In this document: piece by piece, positions 1 to 45,636 of the stretch
Numbering within the stretch: the stretch's first letter is position 1
Layout: every line of letters begins with the position of its first letter
Assembly (NCBI GenBank): GCA_022819945.1
Contig: JAJEGI010000015.1
Span: 11,807-75,806, forward strand
Source of the DNA: Candidatus Poribacteria bacterium
GTDB lineage: Bacteria > Poribacteria > WGA-4E > WGA-3G
Direction: 5' to 3'
Length of the DNA stretch: 64,000 nucleotides
The notes under the pieces: generated by a model
What the model saw: the letters and a program-made list of their open reading frames with translations, nothing else
The model's database searches: none
What the model was told of the DNA's origin: nothing
Position numbers and translations under genes: made by a program

Positions 1-587
1 CCCGCAGCTTCTGTCAATTCCTGCATAAAGGCAACAGTCTGGGCAGCACGCGTGCTATCTCCCACTTCAACGCCTGCAGCTTTAGTAGCATATTCTAATA
101 ACTCGTCCATCAGAATAAGCACGGGTTTTCGCTGTTTTGAAAGCAGTTCACAGAGTGCATCACGGCCTGGGGAAGTCCCTCGGTTAAAGCGATCCATTTT
201 GCCCGTCAACTGTTTTTCCAGCATGCCCCAGAGCGTTTCTTTTTCAGCATCTATCGCTGCTCCATCAATTACTACCCGTTGCGCATTCCACTTACTTGCT
301 TTGTGGTACATTGCAATCTGTGCGTGCGTTTTACCACCTCCAAACGGGGTCTGAATTTGGATGACTGGATCCCCTCCAAGTCCCTTTAACCGTCTTTCAA
401 CAACAGAAAGCAATCTCGTGAGGCCCTCAGTTTCATGCGTGTTTTCAAAAAATTGCGTGGGATCCTTATATTCATCAGAAGCGTTACCTTTAAACACTTC
501 ACCCAGTTTCGCAGCAAATATTTCAGGCGTGTGTTTGCCTCCCAATATATCACCGTGGGGAACGGCAACCTCGTAGAAAGGTAGCAT
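1..587 (-). CDS. DUF499-family P-loop ATPase, paralogue a (N-terminal ~195 aa; gene continues beyond window start)
   Basis: Manual reverse-complement translation from ATG at 587..585 gives MLPFYEVAVPHGDILGGKHTPEIFAAKLGEVFKGNASDEYKDPTQFFENTHETEGLTRLLSVVERRLKGLGGDPVIQIQTPFGGGKTHAQIAMYHK... with no stop to position 1. It is ~70-75% identical to the N-terminus of the 858-aa protein at 6565..9141, including the GGGKT P-loop. The ORF track did not list it because it has no in-window stop. Confidence 0.8.
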   Translation of the reverse strand, partial: MLPFYEVAVPHGDILGGKHTPEIFAAKLGEVFKGNASDEYKDPTQFFENTHETEGLTRLLSVVERRLKGLGGDPVIQIQTPFGGGKTHAQIAMYHKASKWNAQRVVIDGAAIDAEKETLWGMLEKQLTGKMDRFNRGTSPGRDALCELLSKQRKPVLILMDELLEYATKAAGVEVGDSTRAAQTVAFMQELTEAA

Positions 588-620
588 TTACTAATCTCCT
601 TGTAGTCTGAATCAAAAATC

Positions 621-3371
621 TCAGAAGAGATCCAATTGCTTTACTGTCTCTTCCTCTTTCTTCTTTTTTTCTAGCTCATCTATATTTTCTTTAACACGTT
701 CCAAACCGTTACCGTGTAAAAAACCTTCTAATAACCTTTTCTCTTTGTGTCCGGGAGGCAACGTTTCGGAAATAGCTTGTGCGACACGATGGAATGCATC
801 ATTCAATTGGTAACCTTCCCTCTCAAAAACGCCAAGGATTTCTTCATGCCGTGGATCCTCTGCCCACAGTAACAACACATAATGCAGAACGTCAATCAAT
901 TCACTTGCACCTTTGAGTTCGTTTGTTGTTCTGTCATGTGGCCCGAGGACGCGGATAAATTGCTTCTCTTTCTGGATAAAACTGCGTCCGCCCCACCCTT
1001 GGGCAAGGTCAATCCCGCAGGACTGTGCTAATTTCCGAGCGTCATCAAAAGGCACACGTTTTGTCCCGTATTCCCATCGCCAGATAACATAAAAGCGCGT
1101 GAGAGAAGTAATTTTCCCCTCTTCAAAACCATTTCGTAAAATCTTTTTCACAGCGTAATTGGTTACCATTTTTTGCACATCGGTGAGAAGACTGTCTGCT
1201 CGTATTATGTTCGCGTGACGATCCATTACCTTCTTGTATTTGCCAAATATCTCAATTGCTGAACCAATACCAGCTATGAAAAAGTCCGTCCCACTCAAAC
1301 CTTCAGTCCAAAGGCTATCAAGTTTTTCCTTGAGATGGGTTTCCATTTCCGTTTTTACGTCACTATAGAAACCTGTTTCTTTGCGCTCCATTTTCCGAGC
1401 GACAATATAGATAGAAGAAGCAAGGACAGCCGATTCTTGGGCACGGAGACGTGAGGTCATTTCTGTATGAAGAGGCCACGCGCCCGTCATTATGAGGCCG
1501 GAATCAAGCAAAGAATTAATCAATGTTTCCCATCCTGCTGTAGATTTATGGGCGTAGACAATGACGGCAATTCCGTTCGGTTTCAATACACGATAGATTT
1601 CTTGAAAAGAGTCTCTTAGTTTTTCTTCAAAGAACCGCTTGCCTTCCGCGAAGCCACCTGGACCATGTGAATAGGCAACGATCTCGTTATTCTTCGGTGT
1701 CAACGGTGTAGAAAAGAGATCGGGATCAACACTCCCAAGCGTTCGCTTCAGCCAAACATAAAAGAAATCTGAGAGATATGAATAGGGAACGTTGTCGTAA
1801 TATGGTGGATCAGTGAAAACAGCATCAAAAAAATTATCGTGATGCGGGAGGTTAGTGGCTGAGGAATGGGTAACATCAGCGGATTTTGAACTGGATTGTG
1901 AACAGTGTTCAATTACCTTAAAAAAATATTTGCAGCCACTCTCAAAACTTCCAGCCGAACCACTAAATGGATTTACTTCGGCATAATCCCAAATCATTGG
2001 CAGAGCCTGCCTTGAGTACAGATGTGCAACTCCTTCTGAACCGTTTAACCAGCGGACAAGCATATTGCTAACTGCCGCTGTCATGTCAAGTGCTAATGCT
2101 AAATAGCTCACAACTGCCTTGGCGTATTCTATATCAGTTTCCTTCACTACTATCTGTTGATATGCTTCCCTTACCTTCTCTACGAACGTAACCAACATCA
2201 ATTTCTGCCTTGCGTTAAAGAGATCGCCCCAGGTGTTCATTCCATAGTTTTGAACGGAAAATGCTCTTTCAGCTCCCCTTCCTTTTCCTTCTGGAGTAGG
2301 TTCATCTGGCACCGCCTCAATACCCCATTCCAACGTTAACTTCTCCTGCTTCTCTGCAAGAAATGTCTTAGCCCGCTCAAAGACAACCTCGTCGTCAACC
2401 GTAGCCACGCGATAACGCTTACCTCGCACACCCGGCTTGTACGTTACAACGGCAACCATCCGCTCACCTGCTTTTCCCTCCTGAAAAAGTTGCTTAGTCT
2501 GCTTTGAAGTTACCGTCCCACCGCAGGTTGGATTAGGACACACCGCGACAGCTTTTGAGACCGTGCCTTTCGTCGGATCAAAACCGTTGGGTATCGGTCC
2601 GTAGTCATCGCCAACAATCTTAAACTCAACATGCTCGTTCTTAACATCCGGATAAAGGGCAATTTTTTTCTCCTTTTTCCTCTGCTCCGTTTTCTCTTTC
2701 TTTACCAGCCAGAATTGTTTCATCAGGGGAATCTCCATACCACATAATGGATTCTGACATGGAATCGTTCGCGCCCAAATCCACCCAACGACACGCGAAC
2801 CATCTGCTTCTTCTTCATAAAAATCTTTTAGTTCCGCCTTCACTTCCTCAAGCACCCACGTGCTCCATTTTTTCACATCTTCCAGCAAGCGATTTCTGAA
2901 ACTCCTCTTAGAGACAGAACCGTACGTCTGTGGGTATTCTAACGTGCATTTCTGGATCAGGACCGAGACAGGGTTGAGATCACTAGAATAAGTTTTACAA
3001 CCAAGCCGAAGTGTCTCTAGTGGAATCGCCCCACCACCTCCAAAAGGATCCAACACTTTCGGGGGTTCACCCTCGTTAGCTGTAAGGATTTCTTCTCGTG
3101 CCCTTTCAATCAAATGCGCGTTCAAAAGATTTTCCCACTTTGAAAGTTTAATGATAAAATCACGCCTTTGATTCCTTTCTAAATAACCCTTCTTCGGTGC
3201 CTGTGTCAGTGCTGCATAAGCAGTAGCGCGTGAAGAGGCAAGCGGCCGCCGAGCCCACCAGACGTGAAGCGTGGAGATATGTCCATGTCGTATGTACTTA
3301 TCACGGATAGATTCCTCGGAAACCTCTTTAACAGGGAACGATTCTTCAATAAGACGTTTATCTTCTTGCAT
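621..3371 (-). CDS. DUF1156-family DNA methyltransferase (N6-adenine/N4-cytosine gamma-class motifs), paralogue a, 916 aa
   Basis: N-terminal 'HISTLHVWWARRPL' signature; SAM-binding motif I-like 'LDPFGGGGAIPLETLRLG'; catalytic motif IV 'FTDPPYYDNVPY'. ~70% aa identity to the 9813..12476 protein. 33-nt gap to the downstream DUF499-a start. Confidence 0.85.
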   Translation of the reverse strand: MQEDKRLIEESFPVKEVSEESIRDKYIRHGHISTLHVWWARRPLASSRATAYAALTQAPKKGYLERNQRRDFIIKLSKWENLLNAHLIERAREEILTANEGEPPKVLDPFGGGGAIPLETLRLGCKTYSSDLNPVSVLIQKCTLEYPQTYGSVSKRSFRNRLLEDVKKWSTWVLEEVKAELKDFYEEEADGSRVVGWIWARTIPCQNPLCGMEIPLMKQFWLVKKEKTEQRKKEKKIALYPDVKNEHVEFKIVGDDYGPIPNGFDPTKGTVSKAVAVCPNPTCGGTVTSKQTKQLFQEGKAGERMVAVVTYKPGVRGKRYRVATVDDEVVFERAKTFLAEKQEKLTLEWGIEAVPDEPTPEGKGRGAERAFSVQNYGMNTWGDLFNARQKLMLVTFVEKVREAYQQIVVKETDIEYAKAVVSYLALALDMTAAVSNMLVRWLNGSEGVAHLYSRQALPMIWDYAEVNPFSGSAGSFESGCKYFFKVIEHCSQSSSKSADVTHSSATNLPHHDNFFDAVFTDPPYYDNVPYSYLSDFFYVWLKRTLGSVDPDLFSTPLTPKNNEIVAYSHGPGGFAEGKRFFEEKLRDSFQEIYRVLKPNGIAVIVYAHKSTAGWETLINSLLDSGLIMTGAWPLHTEMTSRLRAQESAVLASSIYIVARKMERKETGFYSDVKTEMETHLKEKLDSLWTEGLSGTDFFIAGIGSAIEIFGKYKKVMDRHANIIRADSLLTDVQKMVTNYAVKKILRNGFEEGKITSLTRFYVIWRWEYGTKRVPFDDARKLAQSCGIDLAQGWGGRSFIQKEKQFIRVLGPHDRTTNELKGASELIDVLHYVLLLWAEDPRHEEILGVFEREGYQLNDAFHRVAQAISETLPPGHKEKRLLEGFLHGNGLERVKENIDELEKKKKEEETVKQLDLF

Positions 3372-3394
3372 ATTAAATCCTTCTCGCTATATTT

Positions 3395-3676
3395 TCAACA
3401 ACCTACTAACTGAACAAGCAAAAACACACCTATACTCAAAATACAAAAAACGCCCGCAAAAAGTAACCAGATGGGCCCCACTCCCTTCCAATTTACGCGC
3501 GTATTTGCTTTTTTCCCAGCGCGTGGTGAGGAAAGCATGCGCTGTTCATATCTCTGTAGTGCCGCTTTTGCTCTTGAATCTTGTGTCCTTCTAAGCCATT
3601 TTATTGTCTGATGCTTTGCATAACTTTTATCAGACCAGGATTCACTGTCTACCACATAAATAAGAAGTTGAATCAC
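3395..3676 (-). CDS. hypothetical small protein with C-terminal transmembrane helix
   Basis: 93-aa ORF immediately upstream (24-nt gap) of MTase-a; hydrophobic C-terminus 'GPIWLLFAGVFCILSIGVFLLVQLVGC'; no recognisable family. Confidence 0.3.
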   Translation of the reverse strand: MIQLLIYVVDSESWSDKSYAKHQTIKWLRRTQDSRAKAALQRYEQRMLSSPRAGKKANTRVNWKGVGPIWLLFAGVFCILSIGVFLLVQLVGC

Positions 3677-3779
3677 TGCCTCAAATGAGCCCTGATATTT
3701 GTCAACGGAATTAGTCGTTTTGGACTTGCAAAAAGTTGTTAAAAAAGTGCCGTGAACCCTTATATTTAGTGGGTTTTTC

Positions 3780-4870
3780 GCTTGATTAATTAACGCAATT
3801 TATGGTAAAATATCAGTAGTAAAATAGGGGATTGTCAGTCCCCTATCCGAACCAAAAGCGAGTTGCTTTTTTCAGGTTCTACAACTGCTTGGTATTTTAC
3901 CAGAAACCGTCAGAAAAAAGCAACTCCTAATTTCATAGGAGTATCTGATGGACTTGATCAAGATCATGGAGATGTTCCCGGATCAAGAGGCGTGTATTGC
4001 TTATTTAGAGCGTCTACGATGGCAAGGATCACCAGAATGTCCGCATTGTGAGTCCACACACGTCAAACAACGCAACGAAAGCGATACAGGGCGAATTGGA
4101 CGCTATAACTGTCATGGGTGTCGCTCAACGTTCAAAGTAACGTCCGGCACGATCTTTCACGGCACAAAGATACCGCTTCAGAAGTGGTTTGTTGCGATCG
4201 GACTCATGGCAAACGCAAAGAAAAGTCTCTCAAGTTGCCAACTCGCTCGTGACTTAGGACTCAAGCAGAAAGCGGTTTGGCGGATGATGATGGCAATCCG
4301 TGCCGAGATGAGCAAGGATAACGTGCTACTACAGGGAATTGTAGAGGCAGATGAGACGTACATCGGGGGGAAACGCAAGAAAGACTACGATAAGGAAGCG
4401 GGTGAGCCTCGTAAGCGTGGACGTGGAACGGTGAAAGATGCCGTGATCGGGGCTATTGAGCGCGGTGGAAAGGTCGTCGCGAAGTTGATCCCCGACATCA
4501 CCGGTAAGACGATCCTTGAGTTTATCAAGCGGTTCGTCAAGACCGAAGACTCCGAACTCTATACTGACCAGTATCGTGGATACAACGAAGTCGGTAAAGA
4601 GATGGCACATGAGACCATGAATCGGAGTGAGAAATGGGAAGCCGATGGGATACATACCAACACAATGGAAGGCTTTTGGTCATTTGTAAAGCGTGCATGG
4701 TATGGATCGCATCATCACTATTCAACAGGATACACGCCCCTGTATCTCGCAGAGGCGTGCTATAAGTATAACTACAGAGAAACTAACATGTTTGATAAGT
4801 TTCTCAGGGAGCTGTGGGAATGAGTAAAGAAGAATTAATTGACCAAAAACTTAAGGAAATACTGTATCAA
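3780..4870 (+). mobile_element. IS1595-family insertion sequence (boundaries approximate; terminal inverted repeats not resolved)
   Basis: Contains a single IS1595-type transposase gene between the two DUF1156/DUF499 modules. Only a weak 'caattaatt'-type match between the flanks; exact ends need comparison with an empty site. Confidence 0.4.
3948..4823 (+). CDS. IS1595-family (ISXO2-like) DDE transposase, 291 aa
   Basis: N-terminal Zn-ribbon 'CPHCES...RYNCHGCRSTF' followed by a DDE_Tnp_IS1595-like core ('ADETYIGGKRK', 'YTDQYRGY', 'HTNTMEGFWSFVKR'). Confidence 0.85.
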   Translation: MDLIKIMEMFPDQEACIAYLERLRWQGSPECPHCESTHVKQRNESDTGRIGRYNCHGCRSTFKVTSGTIFHGTKIPLQKWFVAIGLMANAKKSLSSCQLARDLGLKQKAVWRMMMAIRAEMSKDNVLLQGIVEADETYIGGKRKKDYDKEAGEPRKRGRGTVKDAVIGAIERGGKVVAKLIPDITGKTILEFIKRFVKTEDSELYTDQYRGYNEVGKEMAHETMNRSEKWEADGIHTNTMEGFWSFVKRAWYGSHHHYSTGYTPLYLAEACYKYNYRETNMFDKFLRELWE

Positions 4871-4916
4871 ATCTTCCGTCTGTTTGTTGATTTCATCGAC
4901 GATGAACGCAAATACG

Positions 4917-5147
4917 CTAAAAAAACACAGCCTTGAGAGATTTCATCAAATCGTTTACGTCTTTTATCGTTTTCGTGTATCTGACAATCTCGTGAAGGGG
5001 TAAACGATGTTTTGACACGTCCTCACGGAATGTATCAAGGGTATTTTTCAGCGTTTCAATTTCTTCTTCAAAAGATTCGATCACTTGTTTTCGATCTGTG
5101 TTCATCTGTTCGTCCTTATAGGTTGGAGGGGACCGAAGTCCCCTCAC
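4917..5147 (-). CDS. hypothetical protein (76 aa, doubtful)
   Basis: ORF only; N-terminus is encoded by a GC hairpin (GAGGGGAccgaagTCCCCTC at 5119..5140) that may instead be a structural element. Confidence 0.2.
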   Translation of the reverse strand: MRGLRSPPTYKDEQMNTDRKQVIESFEEEIETLKNTLDTFREDVSKHRLPLHEIVRYTKTIKDVNDLMKSLKAVFF

Positions 5148-5154
5148 AGTTGGG

Positions 5155-5577
5155 TTATTGGGTATAGAATAGCTCAGGATAGAAGTTTAACACTATCCAA
5201 ACAGAAACGGCTGTCCCACCGAGACATCCGGCAGATGTATGGATAAGTCGTTTAATCCTAACCTCTTTCTTGTATGTGTCTGTGTAAGCATCAACATAGG
5301 CAGGTGTTTTGCCGATCAAACGATTTACTGGCGGTGTTGGTGGAATAACTTGAGCCGTTATTGCAATAACACCGCCAATAAGACAACCAAGTGCTGCGGA
5401 TGCACAGAAAGTTCCGGCTAACCAGCCGTAAGGTTCTTGTACGTCGCGTTTGGCATCAGCAATTGCTTGTGCAACATCATTTGTCTGCTGAGCAAGCACA
5501 ACACAAGGCATGCCGAAAATCAGCACTGCCATAACAAGTGCAAACAGTCTAAAAGTCATCACGAATCCTCTGGTCAA
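5155..5577 (-). CDS. hypothetical membrane protein (signal/TM helix plus two further hydrophobic segments)
   Basis: 140 aa; 'FRLFALVMAVLIFGMPCVVLA' N-terminal hydrophobic segment, internal 'GCLIGGVIAITAQVI' and C-terminal 'GGTAVSVWIVLNFY'. Confidence 0.4.
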   Translation of the reverse strand: MTRGFVMTFRLFALVMAVLIFGMPCVVLAQQTNDVAQAIADAKRDVQEPYGWLAGTFCASAALGCLIGGVIAITAQVIPPTPPVNRLIGKTPAYVDAYTDTYKKEVRIKRLIHTSAGCLGGTAVSVWIVLNFYPELFYTQ

Positions 5578-5779
5578 AAGACCAAAGTTCTGATATTAGA
5601 ATGAGTTATTGAGTTTACATCACTTTGACACACAACATCACTTTCCGATGTCACTCGGTTTGATGGTAGAGACCGCCCCAAGCGGAGCGGGTGACATTCT
5701 CTACCAAGTGATGTTCTGAATATTATACAATTTTTTGTATTTTTTGTCAATTTTTAAAATTTCTACAAGTCATAAACGA

Positions 5780-6442
5780 CTAATTCCGATTAAATTTGTT
5801 GTTTCCACCAATCCTTGGAGGTTTATGGAATTCAGCGAACGGTCCAATTCCGGCTTTTGTTGCGACTGCCTCGCCATTAATGTAGAGGAAAGCCTCATCC
5901 TCAAAATTCCAAGTCACCGCTACGTGCATCCACACATCTTTTTTAACGAAATCAGGTGCTGGAACAGACATCAGAGCATCTATATCAAGCGCACTTTCTA
6001 TCAAGAAAACGAACTCGTTCTCACGTTCTCCTGCCCGGGTGCCTTTGCCAATAGAGAAGGAGAGGGCAGCCGTACTCGCATCAAATAACCGATAGGTGCC
6101 TTCACCTGCACCGTCCCAATACGGCTTAAACCAGAACCCAATCGTGCCAGGGTTCTGCATCAGGTAATCGAATTCAATGAACTGCTCCTTGTTATCACCG
6201 AGTTCGATCCCCATTCCATATACACCCTCTTTACTCGGCACGCGCTTTGCTCCGCCCATAATCACGCCATCATTTCCGTTACCACTGGCATCTACAGCAA
6301 CATTCGCGTCTTTTCCTTTGAAGGAGAACCAGACTTCGGGTTCTAAGGTATGTCCGGTATGGGAAAACATTATCAAGCCGATCAAGAGTATCAAACTTAG
6401 CGTTAACGGACTGTCAATAGATTGGATTGTTCGGTTAAACAC
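5780..6442 (-). CDS. secreted LamG/concanavalin-A-like lectin-fold protein
   Basis: 220 aa, N-terminal signal-like hydrophobic stretch; sequence resembles LamG-type jelly-roll domains ('IGFWFKPYWDG', 'WMHVAVTWNFEDEAFLYINGE'). Confidence 0.45.
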   Translation of the reverse strand: MFNRTIQSIDSPLTLSLILLIGLIMFSHTGHTLEPEVWFSFKGKDANVAVDASGNGNDGVIMGGAKRVPSKEGVYGMGIELGDNKEQFIEFDYLMQNPGTIGFWFKPYWDGAGEGTYRLFDASTAALSFSIGKGTRAGERENEFVFLIESALDIDALMSVPAPDFVKKDVWMHVAVTWNFEDEAFLYINGEAVATKAGIGPFAEFHKPPRIGGNNKFNRN

Positions 6443-6564
6443 AGCGTCCTCCTTTTTAATGGAGATATACCTACTATTAAAATTGATTGAACACTCTAAT
6501 AGATAAAAAACTTGTCAAGTATGAGCACTGTTTGATTCTGGATGGCGCGGAAATTCAGTTATCT

Positions 6565-9141
6565 TTATTCATCTAAATCAATACCTAACTGGGCAAACGC
6601 CTCTTTGATTTTATCCTCGTAATCCTGTTCTGACATTTCTCCGTGGGTTGCTCTTAATTCAATCTGGAGGTTATCAAAATTCAACTGAAGCAGATTCATT
6701 ACCCCCATGAGTCCAGCCACCTTTCCCTTTGGTACAGTGAATTGCAAGTGAATCTCTTTACGTCCGCTTGACTCCGGCGGGGGCGAATCACCATCTGATC
6801 CGTTACCATTATCTTTACCTTCTACAATATCTGGTGCGGGAGTCCCCCCCGGTGGATAAGTAACACCACTGCTTTTTTCTTCATTCCCCTCTTCTGATTC
6901 CTTTTGGGCGATACAGATGTCTTCTCGGATTATCACCTCACTTCCAACAAGGGTGATTGACGGTGGGTCCTCCTTGAAATACCGGCAAACAGGCCTTTCA
7001 TCTTCCAATTCACCTAATCCAAACAATCCCTGTTCCACCCCTTGGCGAATTCCAGATTCCCAAGCGTCCTGACCAATGACCCGAGCCTCTCCTGGGGTCT
7101 TTGCACTGGATTGAGAGAGTTGTTCGGTGGATACAGATTCATTTGTTTTAAGGTATCGCTCCTTAATCACCAATGGATGAATGCTTTCAAGAATCTCCCC
7201 ATCTGATTTCAGTTTGTCATAGACAACTTCGTCGAGTTTCTTCGTGTCGCCGTAGGTTGGAACACCTAAATCACCTTCCTTCAACCCTTCTTTGGTAGGA
7301 ATAAACAAGGTTCGATAATAGCGGCGCAGCATATCGTCTATTCCATCTTCAGCCTTTTTCCGCTCTGTCCGAACCTCCTTTGCTTGTTCATTAGTGAGCA
7401 CAAGCGTTTTATCGCCTTCAATAGTCTGATACGCAATAACCTTGCGGAGTTGATTGTAAAATCCACTTCTCTCTCGTCCAAGAGGAACAAGAAAGAGTAC
7501 TGTATTTCGGTTCGCCCTCGGTGTATTCCCCTTCATTTCCAATGTGTTTTTCATCAAAACATCGTCACGCGTTTTAAGGATCACCAGTTTCAGTTCCGTG
7601 TCATCGCGGATGCCTGAACCGTCCTTTTGCCAGATATAAGTATCGAGTCTCTTGCCTGAGAGGTTGCCTTTCAGCACCGTTTCCTCAAGTTCACCAACTT
7701 TGGAGTCGGTAATATTCTCCATCCGGGTTTGTAGCATACGATTTAGATTGGGTTGGTTAGCAAAATAAGTCCGTTCACCGTCGTGTTGAAGATAAAACAG
7801 TTTATTTCGCAATTGTTCATTGGCTTCAACAACGATGCTGGAGGGGTTTCCTGTTGTAGTGGCATTCCGTTTAATCTCTCGCAGATCTGCTCCTTTTTTC
7901 TCTGGATTCGGTTTACCTGAAAATGAGTACAGAAACACAGTCGTCGCGGAACGGCTACCGAATCTGAATCCCTTGTGGGCATCCCCAAGTCCGACATCGA
8001 CCTGTTTTGCGCCAGCAACATCACTCGTAATGTCGGAGGCAATGATGCTGTCATATTCTTGACCGGTGTGCTTTAGTAATTCCTGCCGAATTTCCTGAAT
8101 ACTGAGATCGAAATCCGCCAGCGTGATATAAGGGAGGGTTTTCTCTCTAAGGGAATAAAGTACGAGTGACAACAAACGCAATACTCCGCGCGTGCGTTGA
8201 AAATTTGGAAAGCTCCCCCACCGTTGATACAGCACATCAATCACTTCGGGCAGAAACGGATACGCGGTTTCAAATCGCCTTCGATATTCTGAAGGTTCCA
8301 TTCCGGGGGGCAGCATAGATTCACTAACGGCGTAATCCATGAAATCCTGAATTATTTTACCGGCGGCATCAGTATCAATTGACGAAAAAAGTCTACTTCT
8401 GATGACTTCACTAATCTCATGCTCTTGTACTGGTGTATAGATCCTCTCCACCCGTCCTGAAACATGACTAAATTGCTCAAATAGGCGTTGGGCTTGTTCA
8501 TCATAATGTTCCATGGTGCCTGATGGCAGTGTGATAACCAGTGCTACCTTTTCTAAAATACCAGCCGCCTCGGTCAGTTCTTGCATAAAGGCCGCGGTTT
8601 GGGCTGCAAGCGTGCTGTCCGCCACCCGAACACCAGCAGCTTTGGTTACATATTCCAATACTTCGTCCATCAGGATAAGCACAGGTTGTTTTTCCGACAG
8701 CAGCTCGTAGATGGCATCACGCCCTGGTGAAGTCAATCCATCAAAACGCTCTATCTTGCCGGTCAATTGCTTTTCCAACACGCCCCATAATGTATCATTG
8801 GCACCCATCGGTGTTCCGACAATCACCGCTTCTTGTGCCTTCCACTCACTCGCCTTGTGATACATCGCAATCAACGCATGGGTTTTACCACCACCGAAAG
8901 GTGTTTGTAGTTGAATGACAGGATCGCCGCTTTGTCCCTTAAGCCTCCGTTCAATAATTGAAAGCAGATGCTTGAGCCCCGCAGTTTCGTGGGTTTTCTG
9001 GGAAAACTGCGTAGGATCTCTGTATTCATCCGGTGCTGTCCCTCTGAAGACCTCCCACAAGTCTGCGGCGAATACATCCAGTGTGAGTCTGCCCTCCAAT
9101 ATATCAGGGTGCGCCACAGCGATTGCGTGAAATGGCATCAT
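6565..9141 (-). CDS. DUF499-family P-loop ATPase, paralogue b, 858 aa
   Basis: 'MMPFHAIAVAHPDIL' N-terminus, P-loop 'TPFGGGKTHA', 'LILMDEV' Walker-B-like; start ATG overlaps the HepT stop (ATGA). Confidence 0.85.
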   Translation of the reverse strand: MMPFHAIAVAHPDILEGRLTLDVFAADLWEVFRGTAPDEYRDPTQFSQKTHETAGLKHLLSIIERRLKGQSGDPVIQLQTPFGGGKTHALIAMYHKASEWKAQEAVIVGTPMGANDTLWGVLEKQLTGKIERFDGLTSPGRDAIYELLSEKQPVLILMDEVLEYVTKAAGVRVADSTLAAQTAAFMQELTEAAGILEKVALVITLPSGTMEHYDEQAQRLFEQFSHVSGRVERIYTPVQEHEISEVIRSRLFSSIDTDAAGKIIQDFMDYAVSESMLPPGMEPSEYRRRFETAYPFLPEVIDVLYQRWGSFPNFQRTRGVLRLLSLVLYSLREKTLPYITLADFDLSIQEIRQELLKHTGQEYDSIIASDITSDVAGAKQVDVGLGDAHKGFRFGSRSATTVFLYSFSGKPNPEKKGADLREIKRNATTTGNPSSIVVEANEQLRNKLFYLQHDGERTYFANQPNLNRMLQTRMENITDSKVGELEETVLKGNLSGKRLDTYIWQKDGSGIRDDTELKLVILKTRDDVLMKNTLEMKGNTPRANRNTVLFLVPLGRERSGFYNQLRKVIAYQTIEGDKTLVLTNEQAKEVRTERKKAEDGIDDMLRRYYRTLFIPTKEGLKEGDLGVPTYGDTKKLDEVVYDKLKSDGEILESIHPLVIKERYLKTNESVSTEQLSQSSAKTPGEARVIGQDAWESGIRQGVEQGLFGLGELEDERPVCRYFKEDPPSITLVGSEVIIREDICIAQKESEEGNEEKSSGVTYPPGGTPAPDIVEGKDNGNGSDGDSPPPESSGRKEIHLQFTVPKGKVAGLMGVMNLLQLNFDNLQIELRATHGEMSEQDYEDKIKEAFAQLGIDLDE

Positions 9142-9482
9142 TCGCTTCTCTCCTTAAGGATTTGTTGAATTTGCGTTTTCAGCGGCGGAAGCTTGGCCTG
9201 TAACGCATCCCAAACCACATCCATGTTAATATTAAAGTATACATGGATCACTCTATTTCTGAACCCCGCAATATTATGCCATGGAACGCTTGGATACTTC
9301 TCTCGGATGGAATCGGGTATCTTCTTGACAGCTTCACCAATAATTCCAAGGTTTCGGATAACAGCGTCAACCCGCATCTGATCCGCCTCAAACGCACTGC
9401 GAGTCATACCTTCAACGTATGATGCGATACGGTCAGCTGCCTCCACTATGTCTTGGAGGTATAGGTTATAGTTCCGTGACAT
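9138..9482 (-). CDS. hepT: HepT-like (DUF86/HEPN) RNase toxin
   Basis: 114 aa; HEPN Rx4-6H motif region 'FRNRVIHVY'; follows the nucleotidyltransferase gene with a 17-nt overlap, the typical MntA-HepT arrangement. Confidence 0.75.
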   Translation of the reverse strand: MSRNYNLYLQDIVEAADRIASYVEGMTRSAFEADQMRVDAVIRNLGIIGEAVKKIPDSIREKYPSVPWHNIAGFRNRVIHVYFNINMDVVWDALQAKLPPLKTQIQQILKERSE

Positions 9483-9810
9483 ACTCTACCTCTTTTTCAA
9501 TATAAGGTTTGTAACCCGGTTTGATGGATGTGGGGGTCACAAGGTCAATGTCCTTCTTAAACAGATCTTCCAGAAAAACAGCCAACCCCATGTAATCGTC
9601 AAAAGTCAATCTTTCGAGTTCAACGAGAAAATCAATGTCGCTTGCGGCAGTTGCCGTCCCTCGCACGTAAGATCCGAACAAGCCGATCCGTTTAACCCCG
9701 TATTTCCGCAGGGTTTTTCGATTGTCCACAAGGGTCTGCTTGATAAACGCCTTGCTAAGAATTTTTTGATCTTCCAAACTTAAATCCTCCACTAAGGCAC
9801 TTTCTAACAC
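9466..9810 (-). CDS. mntA: MntA-like minimal nucleotidyltransferase antitoxin
   Basis: 114 aa; 'GLFGSYVRGTATAASDIDFLVEL' = GS...DxD polymerase-beta-type nucleotidyltransferase motif. Confidence 0.75.
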   Translation of the reverse strand: MLESALVEDLSLEDQKILSKAFIKQTLVDNRKTLRKYGVKRIGLFGSYVRGTATAASDIDFLVELERLTFDDYMGLAVFLEDLFKKDIDLVTPTSIKPGYKPYIEKEVEYVTEL

Positions 9811-9812
9811 GT

Positions 9813-12476
9813 CTAAAAGAGTTGTCCTTGTCGTATGTCCTCTCTGACCTTTTCACGTCCGGCAAGGAAACCGTCCAGTAGTTTTTTCTCTCTATTTTCA
9901 ATCGGTAGTGTTTCAGAAATGGCTTGCGCGACCCGATAGAACGCCTCGCTGTCTCCATAGCTGCTGTCCCTAAGCACGCGAAGCATTTCATCACGTTGTC
10001 CCTTTTCCCACAGTAATAGGGCCTTGTGCAGGATGTCTATTAACTCTTTAGTATTAGAAAGATCATCAAGCACTCGCGTTTGCGGTCCGAGGACTCGAAT
10101 AAATTGCTTCTCTTTCTTGATAAAACTGCTCCCACCCCACTCTTGTGCAAGGTCAACCCCACAGGATTGTGCTAACTTTCGCGCTTCATCAAACGGGACG
10201 CGCGCTTCGCGATATTCCCATCTCCAGAGGACATAGAAGCGAGTAAGATCGGAAATTTCACCGGCGAACCCGTTGTGCAAAATTTGTCTCACGGCGTAAT
10301 CGGTGGCGATCTCCCGCACATCGTCAAGCAGGCGATCGGCGCGAATTACCTCTCCTTCAAAATCAATAACCTTCTCGTATTTACCGAAAACCTCAATAGC
10401 AGAACCAATAGCGGCAATAAAGAAATCCGCGCCGCTTAGACCTTCCTCCCAAAGACGGTGGAGCTTAGCGTTGAGATGCGTTGTTATTTCTTCTTTAACT
10501 TCATTGTAGAAACCTGTCGGTTGACGTTCCATTTTCCGGGCAACAATATAGATGGAGGAAGCAAGAGCTGCGGATTCATTAGCCGTAAGTCGTGTAACCA
10601 TTTCGGTACGTAGAGGCCAAGCACCTGTCATAATGAGACCAGAATCCAGCAAAGAGTTAATCAAAGTTTCCCATCCTTCTGTGGACTTGTGGGCATAGAC
10701 AATAATAGTCACGCCGTTAGGATTTAACACACGATAGATTTCCTGAAAGGATTGCTTGAGATTTTCCTCAAAGAAGCCCTTGTCTTTGTGTGCATATCTC
10801 CTCGAATCCCACCCCGCCATTTCTGTAATTTCCTGATTTTTCGGAGCAAGAGGGGTCGAAAAAAGTTCTGGGTACAAATCACCAACTGTTCTTTTAAGCC
10901 AAACATAGAAAAAATCGGATAAATCCGCGTATGGAACGCTATTGTAATATGGTGGATCGGTAAAGACCGCATCAAAGAATTCATCAGGATACGCAATATC
11001 AGTAGCAGAAAAGTGAGAGATCACGGCATTTTGTGGGAAAAGCGTTGAACTTAACTGTGAAATAATTTCGGTAGCAATTTCAACTTGACTTAACCAATTT
11101 CCTGTTAAAGTGCCATACGGGTTTTGCTCTGAATAATCAAAAACCATTGGGAGTGCTTGCCTCCCAAAAACATTGAAACTTCTTTCTCCTAAAGGTTCCC
11201 ACCAACAGGAAGTCGAATTATAACTTGAATGCCGGCTTAATATTAGAGCCAAGTAACTCACCACTGCCTTCGCATACTCTACATCAACGTCTTCTGCTAC
11301 TAATTTTTGATATACCGCTTTCACTTTCTCCACAAATGTAATCAACGCTAACTTTTGTCTTGCATTAAAGAGATCTCCCCAAGTATTTATTCCGTAAATA
11401 GCAACATTAAATACTCCACTCATTAAAGGGAGCTCTTCATCAGGTACCGGATTCATACCCCACTCCAACGTCAACTGTTCCTGTTTTTCTGCAAGGCACG
11501 CTTTTGCAGACTTAAAAACAACAAAATCAGCCTCCGTTGCCACGCGATAGTGCTTATCCCTCGTCCCCGGCTTTTGCATGACAACAGCAACCATTCGTTG
11601 TCCTGCTTTCCCTTGTTGAAATAGTTTTCGTGTTGTTTTCGCCTCTATCGGTCTACCACAGATAGGACAAACTGCCACAGCACGTGAGATGCTGCCTATC
11701 TTCGGGTCAAAATCATTAGGTATCCGTTCGTACCCGTCACCAACAATCTTGAACTTGATATTCTTGTCTTGAGGATAAGGGTAAAGTGCAACCTTCTTTC
11801 GTGTCTTGTTTGCCAGCCAGAATTGTTTCATCAGCGGAATTTCTGCCCCACATGAAGGGTTTTGGCACGGAATTGTTCTTGCCCAAATATAACCTACTGG
11901 AATTGAACCATCTTTCTCCTCACGATAAAATTTGCCTAATTCTTTCTTCGCTTCTACAAGGACCCAGTTTCCCCATTTTTTAACATCTTCCGATAAAGTT
12001 ATTTCCGTTGTTGCGCTAAGTGAACTACCGTACTTTTGCGGGTATTCCAATGTACATTTCTGAATTAGAACAGCTACAGGATTGAGATCGTTGGAATAAG
12101 TTTCGCACCCAAGCCGAAGTGTCTCCAGAGGAATTGCACCGCCTCCACCAAAAGGATCCAGAACCTTCGGTGGGATACCGTCGTTCGCTTCAAGGATCTC
12201 CCTCTGTGCTTTTTTAAGCAGATGGGGATTTAGAGAATTTTCCCATTTTGAAAGGTTTATAATAAACTCTCGTTTCCGACTCCATTCATCAGTATCTTGT
12301 GAAGGTGGTACAAGGGCAGCATAGGCGGTTGCACGTGATGCAGCAAGCGGACGTCGCGCCCACCAGATATGGAGCGTAGAGATATGTCCACGCCGTATGT
12401 TTTTCTCATGGACGGATTCAGCGGAAACTTCTTTGACAGGAAAGGTTTCTTCAATGAGGCGTTTGTCTTCGTTCAT
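9813..12476 (-). CDS. DUF1156-family DNA methyltransferase, paralogue b (888 aa from the Met aligned with paralogue a; the ORF-track start at 12578 is probably an upstream in-frame extension)
   Basis: 'MNEDKRLIEETFPV' aligns with the paralogue-a N-terminus; 'HIWWARRPL', 'LDPFGGGGAIPLETLRLG', 'FTDPPYYNSVPY' motifs. 3-nt gap to the mntA start. Confidence 0.85.
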   Translation of the reverse strand: MNEDKRLIEETFPVKEVSAESVHEKNIRRGHISTLHIWWARRPLAASRATAYAALVPPSQDTDEWSRKREFIINLSKWENSLNPHLLKKAQREILEANDGIPPKVLDPFGGGGAIPLETLRLGCETYSNDLNPVAVLIQKCTLEYPQKYGSSLSATTEITLSEDVKKWGNWVLVEAKKELGKFYREEKDGSIPVGYIWARTIPCQNPSCGAEIPLMKQFWLANKTRKKVALYPYPQDKNIKFKIVGDGYERIPNDFDPKIGSISRAVAVCPICGRPIEAKTTRKLFQQGKAGQRMVAVVMQKPGTRDKHYRVATEADFVVFKSAKACLAEKQEQLTLEWGMNPVPDEELPLMSGVFNVAIYGINTWGDLFNARQKLALITFVEKVKAVYQKLVAEDVDVEYAKAVVSYLALILSRHSSYNSTSCWWEPLGERSFNVFGRQALPMVFDYSEQNPYGTLTGNWLSQVEIATEIISQLSSTLFPQNAVISHFSATDIAYPDEFFDAVFTDPPYYNSVPYADLSDFFYVWLKRTVGDLYPELFSTPLAPKNQEITEMAGWDSRRYAHKDKGFFEENLKQSFQEIYRVLNPNGVTIIVYAHKSTEGWETLINSLLDSGLIMTGAWPLRTEMVTRLTANESAALASSIYIVARKMERQPTGFYNEVKEEITTHLNAKLHRLWEEGLSGADFFIAAIGSAIEVFGKYEKVIDFEGEVIRADRLLDDVREIATDYAVRQILHNGFAGEISDLTRFYVLWRWEYREARVPFDEARKLAQSCGVDLAQEWGGSSFIKKEKQFIRVLGPQTRVLDDLSNTKELIDILHKALLLWEKGQRDEMLRVLRDSSYGDSEAFYRVAQAISETLPIENREKKLLDGFLAGREKVREDIRQGQLF

Positions 12477-12706
12477 GCAGTATCCTTTTTGTGAAGGTTT
12501 GGTCGTTTTTTCGACTCCCCTATTCAAAACTATAGGTTTGTGACGTGGCAATACAACTGAGGATTTATAGCATATCAAAGATGTATGAAGATTTCAATGC
12601 AATTGTCGGAGAACGCATATAATGTTGCATCCTTGACGTGCGATAAATCGCACTACTACGAACCGATAAGCGCGTTATTCCAAGACTGTTTTTATCAAGG
12701 CCTGGT

Positions 12707-14716
12707 TTATGTTTCACCAAAAGCCTCGCGAATTTTTTGGAAAAGTCTGATGGTCTTCTCCTTCGTCTCACCGGGTAGCTCGCTGGCATCTTGCATATTG
12801 CTAAGTTTGTTTCGCAATCGCTTTGCTATCGATCCCTTATTTGCCGTTATATCCTTTTCTTCCAGAAAACTCTCAATTCTTTTCCAAAGCACACCCTCAC
12901 CTTGCAACGTAAAGTCATCTACGCCAGCATGCGCAAGTTCTCTACTATAAGTTTCCTTAATAATTGCTTTCATAAAGTCTTCAGTAAAAATATCTTCAAG
13001 TTCAAAATCACCACTGGCACCTATAGCATCGCCTAGCAAAATGGCTTCAGTGTGAGATTCTGTATACTGCGTAAGCCACTTCTTAACCAATTTATCTTTA
13101 GCGCGTCGCCCCTCATCGTCAGAATCAAACAAAGCAACTACGTTAAGACGCTGACCAATCATAAGAGTAGCAACATGAACGGCTTCAGAAGCACTTGTTC
13201 CTGGTGTGATGCGGACATCTTCTGGCAGGCCTTCCTCTTCAATTCGTTTTAACCAATTTGACAATCCTGCTAGAATATAGTAGTCATGAACGCCCTCCAC
13301 AACAAGATTGCGATCAGCGATCAGAAGACTCTGTGAGGCATCCATCCCTAACGCTGCTTGAAGCACAAACTTTGCTTCTGGTGGGCTTTCGACAAGGTCT
13401 GTTGTTACAACGATGCCGTTATCTGTTTCCTTTAGCACTCGAATTCGGTCTGGATGATTCAAATCAATCATGAAGGGAAGATGTGTTGTATAGAGAAGTA
13501 TATTTCCCTTAGCATAGTATTCAAGCCGATCAAGTAAGTCTTTCTGTGCTTCTGGATGAAGGTGGAGTCCGGGTTCATCCAAAAGAACAACACAACCTTC
13601 AAACGTCCCTTCACTTTCGTGCATGAACATGAGGTCAAATGAGAAAAACCATTGAAATCCTTTGGATCTCTCCTCCAATTCAATGAGGGCTTCATCAAGA
13701 TCATCCTTTAGAAAAGTAAAGAAATCCTGATTATCAACATCATATTCAACTTCATAATTGCGTTGACGAAATCGATCTGAGATTAAGTTTGTTAGAGTGC
13801 TCCCACCGTCAGCAAGATCAAATTGTCGTTGCTTACGGGTTTCTGCATCGCCCTGTCCAAGCTGAATCAAGTTATTTAGATCAAGCCCTGATAAGTTAAG
13901 GATTGTGAGAAAGGTCTTGTCTTCTTCCGTCAAACGATTGTTATTTTGACGAGATTGAATCTCATCAAGTTGTGCAGCCCCGCTAAATGCTTTATAATCG
14001 TCCATGTAGATAAATGTGGGCAAATGATCAGTAATATATTCATGAATTTTTGATTGAATAGAGGGTAATGGTTCAAGCGTATGAACAAGCTGTGCAAGAC
14101 CTGCAATGTACGCGCTGATAAAGTTGTTCTCAATTTGCTGTGGGGGTTCCGATGGCGATAGGACCTCTTGCAACAACATTTGGTGCTTTTGAGCTAATCC
14201 TCTTAAATCGGTGAATCGACCTTCATGTGCAAAACGTCTCACTTCTTTGAGGCATTCATCAGCACGTTGTTTGAATGGAACCCCAAAATCACTTTGAACC
14301 TGTGGTAGAACACTACAAGCATTATTAACATCGTTAGGATCTGGTTTATCCGAGAAAATCTCATCCTCAAAGTCTATAACTAATTGCCCTGCATAATTCC
14401 GGGACACTTCTATGGTATCAGGGAATATCGCATTCTCAGCAATCTGGGTGAGTTCGGATTTTTCTTGATCTGAAAGTCGAAACTTTGCCCGGCAAACCTC
14501 TTGCTCTTCGCTTTGTTCTTGCCGTCGGCCGCGTGGCCATTCCTTCCTCATAACATAAGGCTCGGGGGTGTAAGGATTAAGCTTATGAAGTGCTTTCAGA
14601 AGGGAGGTTTTTCCCGATTCATTTTTGCCAACGAGTACCGTTAGTGGATTCACTTCGACCCATCCAGAGTCAAGGATCCCTTTGTACATAGTAACACGAA
14701 AAGAAATCAAGTCCAT
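12707..14716 (-). CDS. OLD-family ATP-dependent endonuclease (ABC ATPase + Toprim), 669 aa
   Basis: Walker A 'LVGKNESGKTSLLKAL'; 'VVLLDEPGLHLHPEAQ' ABC signature/Walker B typical of AAA_21/OLD; C-terminal Toprim 'LVVEGVHDYYIL' and 'LFDSDDEGR'. Confidence 0.8.
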   Translation of the reverse strand: MDLISFRVTMYKGILDSGWVEVNPLTVLVGKNESGKTSLLKALHKLNPYTPEPYVMRKEWPRGRRQEQSEEQEVCRAKFRLSDQEKSELTQIAENAIFPDTIEVSRNYAGQLVIDFEDEIFSDKPDPNDVNNACSVLPQVQSDFGVPFKQRADECLKEVRRFAHEGRFTDLRGLAQKHQMLLQEVLSPSEPPQQIENNFISAYIAGLAQLVHTLEPLPSIQSKIHEYITDHLPTFIYMDDYKAFSGAAQLDEIQSRQNNNRLTEEDKTFLTILNLSGLDLNNLIQLGQGDAETRKQRQFDLADGGSTLTNLISDRFRQRNYEVEYDVDNQDFFTFLKDDLDEALIELEERSKGFQWFFSFDLMFMHESEGTFEGCVVLLDEPGLHLHPEAQKDLLDRLEYYAKGNILLYTTHLPFMIDLNHPDRIRVLKETDNGIVVTTDLVESPPEAKFVLQAALGMDASQSLLIADRNLVVEGVHDYYILAGLSNWLKRIEEEGLPEDVRITPGTSASEAVHVATLMIGQRLNVVALFDSDDEGRRAKDKLVKKWLTQYTESHTEAILLGDAIGASGDFELEDIFTEDFMKAIIKETYSRELAHAGVDDFTLQGEGVLWKRIESFLEEKDITANKGSIAKRLRNKLSNMQDASELPGETKEKTIRLFQKIREAFGET

Positions 14717-14774
14717 AGTAAAGTACGAAACCTCTTAAATTGATTGGTATTGTCTTGACACATCCTATATGATG

Positions 14775-18125: not shown

Positions 18126-18262
18126 ACGTATTTGTTCCTTACATAACTTCCTTAGTCCAGTTTTGATTCAGATACCTTTAACATTGTAAATTACCTTGAA
18201 ATTTAAAGCAATTCTTTATACTATATCTTGCAAGGAAACGATACCTCTATTCCGCATGAGGC

Positions 18263-19078: not shown

Positions 19079-19094
19079 TCAGGTTAATACTGCA

Positions 19095-19502: not shown

Positions 19503-19522
19503 AAAGTGTGAGGAAATGAACG

Positions 19523-20437: not shown

Positions 20438-20445
20438 GAAACACC

Positions 20446-45492: not shown

Positions 45493-45636
45493 ATCGGCTT
45501 TGTAGGGCGGGGATGACTTTCTCGCCTTTGCCCTACGCCGCTTTACCAGAGAACATGTTAGCATGACCACGGGTTTTGTATCTAAGGTGCCGCCTCGTGG
45601 TTTTACTACGTTCTCCTTGAGGTACTGGAGGGCTGA

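Follow-up and report, generated by a model that had tools for sequence, protein, structure and literature searches.

A canonical and a broken, helicase-free DUF499-centred BREX-related system from Poribacteria, probably joined by recombination or mis-assembly through an IS1595-family element

The Hma system (Payne et al. 2021) corresponds to the Type-1 DUF499-centred BREX-related (BR) system of a recent classification (NAR 2026, PMC12839542). Its helicase HmaA belongs to the SNF2 family and in most cases carries, fused at the C-terminus, a PD-(D/E)xK/NOV_C nuclease domain. Additional genes embedded in Hma loci are a published pattern (bioRxiv 10.1101/2024.01.29.577857); the system, its embedded genes and HmaA-dependent defence have been described (PMC8565338; bioRxiv 10.1101/2024.01.29.577857; PMC11232893; PMC12839542), and anti-phage activity and self-methylation have been published for Hma members other than those discussed here (PMC11232893). 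PMC12839542 likens the DUF499 protein to BrxC and HmaA to BrxHII of Type 3 BREX, and the DUF1156 methylase to PglXI, with a target-recognition insert after core strand 2; it also gives as the mark of Type-2 BR systems a stand-alone DUF3780 gene, found in 98% of members.

The 64-kb window analysed here, the whole of one stretch of Poribacteria DNA, carries two DUF1156–DUF499 modules side by side, designated a and b (Table 1). The minus-strand ORFs of an earlier note on this DNA were all recovered at the same positions, and Pfam and PADLOC place both methylases in DUF1156/HmaB and both ATPases in DUF499/HmaC. They do not form one system with two specificity modules; modules a and b are separate systems. 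The reading that we consider probable is a joint one, in which two members of the DUF499-centred BREX-related (Hma/Type-1 BR) group, the canonical module b and the broken, helicase-free module a, have been joined secondarily through an insertion sequence (IS). Module a would be what remains of a rare helicase-free three-gene cassette, T5orf172 → DUF1156 → DUF499, with its nuclease gene split, and its adjacency to module b would have arisen by recombination between two IS copies or by a join made during assembly across an IS present in several copies.

Table 1 Features of the two modules and of the element between them (window positions)
Feature	Position	Strand	Evidence
HmaC_a, first 195 codons of DUF499 AAA+ ATPase, continuing past window start	1..587	-	Pfam DUF499; PADLOC HmaC 1.9e-45
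HmaB_a, DUF1156 N6-adenine methyltransferase, 916 aa, intact	621..3371	-	Pfam DUF1156 1.1e-19; PADLOC HmaB 3.2e-128
HmaB_a hypervariable cassette, aa 401-500, putative target-recognition element before DPPY (aa 521-524)	1872..2171	-	column entropy
T5orf172-gene 3' remnant, aa 142-244 and stop, third gene of module a cassette	3395..3705	-	L091 comparison
IS1595-family element, 2,083 bp	3706..5788	.	inverted repeats, transposase
IS inverted repeats, 32 nt, 84% complementary	3706-3737 and 5757-5788		
IS transposase	3948..4823	+	Pfam DDE_Tnp_IS1595 1.1e-36 and Zn_ribbon_IS1595
IS passenger ORFs, two, small	4917..5147 and 5155..5577	-	
LamG (Laminin_G_3) gene, 3'-truncated by IS	5789..6442	-	Pfam Laminin_G_3
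HmaC_b, DUF499 AAA+ ATPase, 858 aa	6565..9141	-	Pfam DUF499 4.5e-35; PADLOC HmaC 1e-118
HepT-like RNase toxin (predicted), embedded in module b	9138..9482	-	Pfam HepT-like 1.4e-30
MNT nucleotidyltransferase antitoxin, within module b	9466..9810	-	Pfam NTP_transf_2 8.7e-16; PADLOC PDC-S09 3.7e-31
HmaB_b, DUF1156 N6-adenine methyltransferase, 887 aa	9813..12476	-	Pfam DUF1156 3e-21; PADLOC HmaB 3e-126
HmaB_b hypervariable cassette, approximately aa 390-495	10992..11309	-	sliding identity a vs b 26-40%
OLD-like ABC ATPase(-TOPRIM), between HmaA and HmaB	12707..14716	-	Pfam AAA_15, AAA_21; PADLOC Old 1e-16, GajA 3e-15
HmaA, SNF2 helicase and C-terminal NOV_C nuclease-like domain, 1116 aa	14775..18125	-	PADLOC HmaA 2.9e-206

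Judged from its sequence, module b (6565..18125) is a complete canonical Hma/Type-1 BR system. Like described Hma loci, it has the three core genes on one strand in the canonical order A-B-C, together with embedded genes, here a toxin-antitoxin pair and an OLD-like ABC ATPase with a putative TOPRIM part, and its HmaA shows the usual architecture (Pfam SNF2-rel_dom, Helicase_C and NOV_C, the last at 5.3e-22). As the earlier note had it, the MNT and HepT genes lie between the methylase and the ATPase, and the OLD-like gene and HmaA upstream (Pfam, PADLOC); the MNT and HepT genes are adjacent with a 17-nt overlap, as in an MNT-HepT toxin-antitoxin pair. In OLD-family nucleases an ABC ATPase is fused to a TOPRIM nuclease domain; the PADLOC Old match covers residues 376-579 of the OLD-like protein, orthologues of which occupy the equivalent position in five other loci (L008, L023, L029, L073 and L086). 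HmaB_b is taken to start with an ATG at 12476 (a TTG at 12578 opens the longest ORF), and its alignment with homologues begins at MNEDKRLIEE. HmaC_b is 86-92% identical to its counterparts in L008, L023 and L029, and the module b locus is syntenic with L008, L029 and L010, at none of which a second module is present.

Module a shares HmaB and HmaC with the Hma system but has no SNF2-family helicase (HmaA) in its locus. Its methylase and ATPase genes are separated by 33 nt, as had been noted before, and HmaB_a carries the FGGGG and DPPY motifs, with a dN/dS of 0.13 against the relative on contig L091. The earlier note had named a degenerate module with a frameshifted ATPase as the finding that would speak against it; the complete HmaC_a gene, recovered on contig L001 (3172..5736; Pfam DUF499 4.4e-34), is instead an uninterrupted ORF of 854 aa, with the Walker motifs, A (GGGKTH) and B (LILMDE), visible in the alignment and a dN/dS of 0.16 against a 96%-identical relative. 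Nor do further partners of module a lie beyond the window start, as had been suggested: HmaC_a is followed on L001 by genes for EF-G, peptidase S58, DUF4416 and rpoB, and no helicase was found in these 7.4 kb downstream, while on the upstream side of the module the T5orf172 remnant borders directly on the IS. The PglZ phosphatase, a mark of Type-3 BR and BREX systems, was found neither among the ORFs of 1..22095 nor on L001, and DUF3780 had no match in the ORFs scanned in or beside either module. From Type 3 BREX the systems here differ in that PglZ, BrxA, BrxB and BrxL are absent and a nuclease domain is present; a weak PADLOC match to PglXI was seen.

The likely partner of module a is upstream, different in kind and broken in this genome. 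At this place the earlier note had recorded a 93-aa membrane ORF (3395..3676), whose hydrophobic tail is indeed present, but which is no free-standing gene, lying inside the remnant of a T5orf172 gene. Window 3388..3705 has 94% DNA identity to L091 6491..6808, and the 103 codons of the remnant encode a sequence 92% identical to aa 142-244 of its T5orf172 counterpart in L091, so that a gene of ~244 aa is cut by the IS at codon 141/142 (window 3705/3706); its N-terminal domain (aa 2-88) is absent from the entire window. In L085, L091, L092 and L093, the gene is intact and lies upstream of the methylase. Unlike Hma, module a and these relatives have, instead of a helicase, a ~240-aa T5orf172-domain protein encoded upstream. 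The order T5orf172-HmaB-HmaC on a single strand is common to them, with gaps of 23-57 nt between the first two genes in L085, L092, L093 and the window, and is kept in L091 with a 385-bp insert, while HmaC of these relatives ranges from 96% down to 70% identity to module a. No helicase occurs near the triad in the available flanks of L085, L091, L092 and L093, the triad being known from five contigs, apparently of one phylum, two of them too short to exclude one nearby, and elsewhere in these genomes a helicase may exist; upstream in L091 (6 kb) and L093 (3.4 kb) there are only T5orf172, alcohol-dehydrogenase (ADH) and HtrA genes.

In L091, where it measures about 6.8 kb, and in L093 the cassette sits exactly between ADH and EF-G genes, and in three other Poribacteria contigs ADH is directly followed by EF-G, representing the empty site. 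From such genome comparison, the module a cassette is an independent insertion unit, evidently gained and lost as one. Purifying selection acts on all three of its genes (dN/dS 0.12-0.13 for HmaB, 0.15-0.16 for HmaC and 0.28-0.36 for T5orf172). Of 35 GTDB-representative loci flanked by 6 kb or more on both sides, 32 had HmaA-B-C and three HmaB alone; HmaB-C without HmaA was seen in none of them, nor was the T5orf172 gene of the triad. The C-terminal half of the T5orf172 protein has four representatives among 1.84 billion proteins. T5orf172 is counted among the nuclease domains of N6A restriction-modification (R-M) systems (PMC4738411), and the protein, which has a hydrophobic tail, is putatively a small nuclease. 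In the accessible parts of the PADLOC definition and of the BR classification the helicase-less form with T5orf172 does not appear, and T5orf172 and GIY-YIG had no match in PMC12839542.

It might be argued that T5orf172 has nothing to do with its neighbours, being a defence system of one gene or part of a mobile element, and that the HmaB-HmaC pair without helicase is itself modification-only, regulatory or what is left of a complete Hma system in decay. PADLOC matches the N-terminal domain of T5orf172 to PDC-S57, a single-gene candidate (5.7e-31), defence genes do accumulate in Hma loci (bioRxiv 10.1101/2024.01.29.577857), the components are separable in that HmaA alone can defend (PMC11232893), and T5orf172 evolves faster than its neighbours. 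We nevertheless hold this explanation to be unlikely, because the three genes come and go jointly at one site, keep their order, strand and short gaps over the whole range of HmaC divergence, and are alike under purifying selection, and because the C-terminal half of T5orf172 is almost confined to triad loci. A bolder proposal, which we put forward only tentatively, is that T5orf172-DUF1156-DUF499 forms an autonomous helicase-free R-M-like BR subtype, in which a small, possibly membrane-tethered GIY-YIG-type nuclease would replace the SNF2 helicase-nuclease; Poribacteria would besides have a network of multiple specificities, with a ~100-aa recognition cassette exchanged among helicase-type, triad-type and orphan DUF1156 methylases.

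The two modules are more distant from each other than the ~70-75% protein identity of the earlier note implied, the methylases being 62% (BLASTP) or 64% (MAFFT) identical and the ATPases 69% for the part inside the window (195 residues) and 59% over full length, with the rest taken from L001. That they are old paralogues and not a recent duplicate is borne out by the saturation of dS between them. Orthologues of module b in other Poribacteria are 83-92% identical, and module a stands at the base of the clade in an NJ tree, the branching of which was read without support values. Alignment of the two methylases, proposed earlier as a way to find their most divergent region, brought out a discrete 100-aa cassette before DPPY. 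Residues 401-500 have the highest column entropy in the family (53 homologues), and the cassette is 35% identical between HmaB_a and HmaB_b, as against 68% for the remainder. Cassette types conflict with backbone relatedness (L006 and L072, for instance, are 46% identical in the cassette and 92% in the backbone) and are swapped among Poribacteria paralogues; dS is higher within the cassette, and every genome examined has at least two types. The cassette is a putative target-recognition element, so regarded only from its place within the insert that separates motifs I and IV; an AlphaFold model made for this question was poor (pLDDT 64.8).

The presence of more than one methylase with different variable regions per genome recalls Type I R-M systems, and the exchange of cassettes resembles that of HsdS target-recognition domains. 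The modules differ from those systems, however, in having no separate specificity subunit, and the lineage of module a has a putative nuclease of its own. The specificity diversification suggested by the earlier note stands in part: two methylases with different, swappable cassettes point to it indirectly, but the sharing of a helicase is unsupported. In one of the two alternatives of that note, a single helicase/OLD pair would serve both modules, with module a as a second specificity module using HmaA (perhaps also OLD) of module b in trans, as several HsdMS use one HsdR. Intact HmaB_a and HmaC_a under purifying selection and the different cassette types of the two methylases would accord with it, and three Poribacteria genomes do combine one complete Hma system with one to three helicase-less HmaB paralogues, which have alternative cassettes and are under purifying selection (dN/dS 0.23-0.26). 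Yet the lineage of module a forms a cassette complete in itself, which has a T5orf172 gene in place of a helicase and is gained and lost whole. Furthermore, an a/b protein identity of 59-64% does not imply cross-assembly with HmaA_b, a tandem second module occurs in none of the 35 well-flanked loci, and the two modules meet at an IS junction with one truncated gene on each side. We therefore regard helicase sharing as quite improbable, and keep to two separate systems.

The earlier note had placed both modules in the same island; they do lie side by side in the window, but the sole link between them is the 2,083-bp element. This is assigned to the IS1595 family by its transposase with N-terminal zinc ribbon (DDE_Tnp_IS1595) and its terminal inverted repeats, and it is multi-copy in the assembly graph. 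An 8-bp target-site duplication is the norm in this family. The present copy deviates in having two passenger ORFs and no such duplication, its flanks being TTTGTCAA and ATTAAATT; the missing duplication fits a hybrid copy produced by recombination, or a mis-join. On the module b side, the stop codon of the LamG ORF lies within the IS inverted repeat; its L029 orthologue (83% identity) extends about 52 aa further at the C-terminal end, and the missing part was not found in the window. An assembly made independently from the same population has the flanks on two different scaffolds, each ending 53-54 nt inside the IS, and among the contigs of a sister sample from the same project the element stands alone, at 2,083 bp and 100% identity (L084). 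With the T5orf172 and LamG genes both truncated by one IS, no target duplication and the IS on a contig of its own elsewhere, the adjacency is attributable to IS recombination or a mis-join.

That it is purely an assembly artefact, different loci or co-occurring Poribacteria strains having been joined via a collapsed multi-copy IS, is a substantial possibility, which we put somewhat below even. The real genome would then have a simple IS insertion in T5orf172, with the 5' half of that gene on the other side. Such a mis-join would explain why, in two short-read assemblies made independently, the sequence stops at the ends of the IS, why the flanks without duplication are halves of two unrelated genes, and why in the relatives of module b the LamG gene is followed by sulfatase and ADH genes, not by EF-G. 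On the other hand, the assembly of the window crosses a 67-bp x 6 tandem repeat inside which the scaffold of the other assembly ends, suggesting better data, possibly long reads; an identical junction is expected from recombination between two IS copies; and the two sides are alike in tetranucleotide composition, which does not tell different Poribacteria apart either. The artefact concerns the adjacency only and is compatible with two separate systems.

With modules a and b taken as separate systems, the methylase of each would mark host DNA at sites read by the swappable ~100-aa cassette before DPPY, and the DUF499 ATPase would scaffold or scan; unmarked DNA would be attacked by a nuclease, namely HmaA in module b and the T5orf172 protein in module a. 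Module a, its nuclease gene being split, would most likely be a modification-only pair with a specificity unlike that of module b.

For annotation, the locus is a warning that IS junctions can create apparent 'two-module islands' and that small ORFs beside them can be gene remnants. The discrete cassette, in paralogues at least 90% identical elsewhere, is a concrete and testable candidate for the target-recognition element, and methylation motifs can be counted against cassette types on existing HiFi Poribacteria assemblies. An issue in the mechanism of the widespread Hma/BR systems is whether the DUF499 ATPase and the DUF1156 methylase need the SNF2 helicase. A natural lineage in which this pair moves as a three-gene unit with a small T5orf172 protein, under purifying selection and without a helicase, would mark it as a portable core for recognition and modification, to which different effectors can be coupled.

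The two DUF1156–DUF499 modules at the start of the window are most likely two independent systems, module b, a standard Hma system, and module a, a copy of a rare T5orf172–methylase–ATPase cassette that lacks a helicase and has here been disrupted by an IS. They were most likely brought together, or seemingly so, by an IS1595-family element. All of their genes, assigned by Pfam and PADLOC, lie on the minus strand. The earlier note's observation of two modules is real, but its details need correction: the methylase–ATPase gap in module a is indeed 33 nt and the modules are related, but the protein identity of ~70–75% given there is too high, the methylases sharing 62% (BLASTP) or 64% (MAFFT) and the ATPases 69% within the window part and 59% at full length. 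The dN/dS between the modules is uninformative because dS is saturated. Sequence searches of the PDB with HmaB and HmaC of module a gave zero matches, and neither Rfam families nor tRNA genes were detected in the window. The G+C content of both modules (window 621..18125; 388..5736 of contig L001, described below) is 0.44–0.45, lower than that of the flanks (0.47–0.49), and their tetranucleotide profiles correlate with each other at r 0.92 and with neighbouring chromosome segments at only 0.63–0.74.

Genes of modules a and b in the window
Feature	Position	Strand	Assignment
HmaA, SNF2 helicase with C-terminal NOV_C domain	14775..18125	-	PADLOC HmaA 2.9e-206
OLD/GajA-like ABC ATPase	12707..14716	-	PADLOC Old 1e-16
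HmaB of module b, DUF1156 methylase	9813..12476	-	PADLOC HmaB 3e-126
MNT	9466..9810	-	Pfam NTP_transf_2 8.7e-16
HepT	9138..9482	-	Pfam HepT-like 1.4e-30
HmaC of module b, DUF499 ATPase	6565..9141	-	PADLOC HmaC 1e-118
HmaB of module a (second HmaB)	621..3371	-	PADLOC HmaB 3e-128
HmaC of module a (second HmaC), codons 1–195 only	1..587	-	PADLOC HmaC 1.9e-45

Taken alone, module b is an ordinary member of the Hma family, the three-gene HmaA-B-C system that Payne et al. described in 2021 (PMC8565338) and for which the name Type-1 DUF499-centred BREX-related (BR) system was later introduced (PMC12839542). Embedded genes occur in 62.7% of Hma loci (bioRxiv 10.1101/2024.01.29.577857; embedding also in PMC11232893), and those found among the hma genes include ABC-ATPase/TOPRIM proteins and toxin-antitoxin pairs (bioRxiv 10.1101/2024.01.29.577857; PMC11232893). 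The embedded-gene survey took only loci containing each hma gene once (bioRxiv 10.1101/2024.01.29.577857), so that duplicated hma components dropped out of it. A complete Hma system on a HiFi Poribacteria contig (L086) has an additional embedded XisI-family gene (7218..7550), flanked by HmaA and the OLD-like gene. A term search of the accessible text of the BR classification paper (PMC12839542) returned no mention of T5orf172 or GIY-YIG. The MANTIS preprint (10.64898/2026.09.23.753747) describes a BREX-related dual-ATPase system; its text names DUF499 two times, and Hma, T5orf172, DUF1156, DUF3780, and SNF2 are all absent from the term counts of that text.

Module a can be followed past the window start on L001 (ENA ERZ23491379, scaffold_35, 292 kb), which encodes the exact HmaB protein of this module, matches window 1..3758 at 100% identity, and extends beyond position 1. 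There the ATPase gene encodes a whole DUF499 protein of 854 aa, intact rather than degenerate and frameshifted as the earlier note had considered, and is followed by EF-G, peptidase S58, DUF4416, and rpoB, without a helicase, which refutes the suggestion that module a has partners of its own in that direction. Searches with this ATPase found relatives at 96%, 77%, and 70% identity, and the closest relative of the methylase is 74% identical. On the contigs of these ATPase relatives (L091, L092, and L093), a ~240-aa T5orf172/MUG113-domain protein is followed by a DUF1156 methylase and a DUF499 ATPase, and L085, the contig of the methylase relative, which stops just past the methylase, contains the first two genes; all lie on one strand and without a helicase, L085 and L092 being too short to tell much of their flanks. 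The supposed 93-aa membrane gene next to module a corresponds to residues 142–244 of this T5orf172 protein, cut at the IS boundary; window 3388..3705 and the 3′ portion of the L091 T5orf172 gene share 94% identity. An origin of the same ORF as an HmaA remnant was ruled out, since it has no HmaA similarity and matches the T5orf172 gene.

The triad is a discrete accessory cassette, since in three other Poribacteria contigs with the neighbourhood DUF1232, HtrA, ADH, EF-G, S58, DUF4416, and rpoB (assigned to the phylum by the source annotations given for the ADH cluster and by genome scan titles) the ADH–EF-G gap is only 22 bp, and in L091 and L093 the three genes (~6.8 kb in L091) are placed exactly between ADH and EF-G. 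Between L091 and the window genome the triad is 96–97% identical and the adjoining EF-G start only 88%, which hints at exchange of the triad between lineages. All three triad genes are under purifying selection; dN/dS, including the window copies versus L091, is 0.12–0.13 for HmaB, 0.15–0.16 for HmaC, and 0.28–0.36 for T5orf172. Very few proteins share the specific C-terminal half of T5orf172 (4 representatives in a set of 1.84 billion), and the 35 GTDB-representative loci with at least 6 kb of flank on each side include neither this T5orf172 gene nor any HmaB-HmaC pair that lacks HmaA. A metagenome scan with the T5orf172 alignment returned 80 loci with generic domains, none with an HmaB or HmaC neighbour except the distant, differently arranged L136, and is of no use for estimating the spread of the triad. 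In L091, an additional 385-bp insert (6809..7192) separates the T5orf172 gene from the methylase; it is absent in the window, L085, L092, and L093 and could be a small mobile element.

The two modules are separated in the window by the IS (3706..5788), in which imperfect 32-nt inverted repeats (3706–3737 and 5757–5788) flank an IS1595-family transposase gene (3948..4823). Its two small passenger ORFs, 4917..5147 and 5155..5577 (minus strand), encode products of 76 aa and 140 aa, the latter with hydrophobic segments; neither matches a Pfam family. The side-by-side placement of the modules is secondary, as follows from four observations. First, the module a and module b scaffolds of an independent assembly each end 53–54 nt within the IS, as is characteristic of a repeat that has several distinct flanks; a stand-alone contig of a sister-sample assembly from the same project (L084) consists of exactly the 2,083-bp element at 100% identity. 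Second, a gene is truncated on each side, T5orf172 toward module a and LamG toward module b (the L029 orthologue is ~52 residues longer), and neither missing half is present in the window (the counterparts are 6067..6490 of L091 for T5orf172 and 16685..16846 of L029 for LamG). Third, no target-site duplication surrounds the element; beside the lost gene halves, at IS ends, 8-bp duplicates TTTGTCAA and ATTAAATT would be expected. Fourth, related Poribacteria share the gene order around module b, with PhyH-GNAT-PhyH upstream and LamG, sulfatase, and ADH downstream, and have no second module there. The adjacency is then due either to recombination between two IS copies or to a join made in assembly across a collapsed IS; against the latter, the window's assembly crosses a tandem repeat (six units of 67 bp) at which the other scaffold stops, which somewhat favours its being the better data. 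Tetranucleotide and G+C composition of the two IS sides did not discriminate, as all Poribacteria segments correlate at 0.8–0.9, and cluster and contig look-ups for the source genome's own contig joining ADH to the T5orf172 remnant gave only empty-site genomes.

The tandem array (41345..41741, 91% matches), inside which scaffold_987 of the independent assembly stops at ~41570, lies within a 1.8-kb gene-poor stretch. Elsewhere in the window, 35122..41292 (minus strand) encodes a secreted protein of 2,056 aa that combines seven cadherin domains with LDL-receptor class B (YWTD) and NHL repeats, a dockerin, and a T9SS sorting tail and belongs to the eukaryote-like repeat proteins typical of Poribacteria. 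A bacterial microcompartment locus apparently begins at 45172..47064 (plus strand), where an aldehyde dehydrogenase follows a BMC-domain shell protein.

Among 53 homologues, the most variable methylase stretch comprises aa 401–500 of HmaB of module a, directly preceding the DPPY motif within the large insert between motifs I and IV. In this stretch the two modules share 35% identity, as against 68% elsewhere, and within-genome paralogues of other Poribacteria (e.g., L006/L072 and L007/L015) are 39–46% identical inside it and 88–93% outside. Its types follow neither the relatedness of the backbones nor the kind of system, the module b type occurring in the triad member L093 and the module a type in the complete systems L072 and L086. 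The higher dS inside than outside (0.83 vs 0.23; 1.6 vs 0.43) indicates exchange of an older segment, not fast evolution alone. From its position, we regard the stretch as a putative target-recognition element; an AlphaFold2 model of the methylase (53 sequences, mean pLDDT 64.8) was too poor to place it structurally, and Foldseek against the PDB with this model gave only generic SAM-methyltransferase matches over ~80–95 residues. The differing, exchanged segments lend indirect support to the specificity diversification proposed earlier, but the accompanying idea that one helicase serves both modules found no positive support.

DUF1156 methylases also occur outside Hma systems. In each of two complete or near-complete Poribacteria genomes, one full Hma is accompanied by two or three HmaB genes that lack a helicase and sit at housekeeping loci, some of them kept in both; dN/dS of these orphans is 0.23–0.26. 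On contig s22.ptg000023l of the HiFi Poribacteria assembly ERZ19489113, for example, a complete Hma occurs with three orphan HmaB genes, and types I and II of the variable segment are represented. A third genome contains one orphan HmaB and one complete Hma ~37 kb apart. At the NFACT/GroEL locus, the orphan methylase is preceded by a protein with an HSDR_N nuclease-like domain (L006 8523..9869, with an HTH; L088 9000..10001, the stop of which overlaps the methylase start), and the two may constitute a minimal nuclease–methylase pair that draws on this methylase family. A 1080-aa JGI protein (P0101), in which a DUF1156 methylase is fused to DUF559 and MTES_1575 endonuclease-like domains, represents another route coupling this family to a small nuclease.

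By analogy with what is known of such families, methylation would serve self-marking of host DNA, the DUF499 ATPase would act as a scaffold or scanner, and the nuclease would be the effector; the disrupted module a is probably now modification-only. The parts worth following are the helicase-free triad and the swappable methylase segment.
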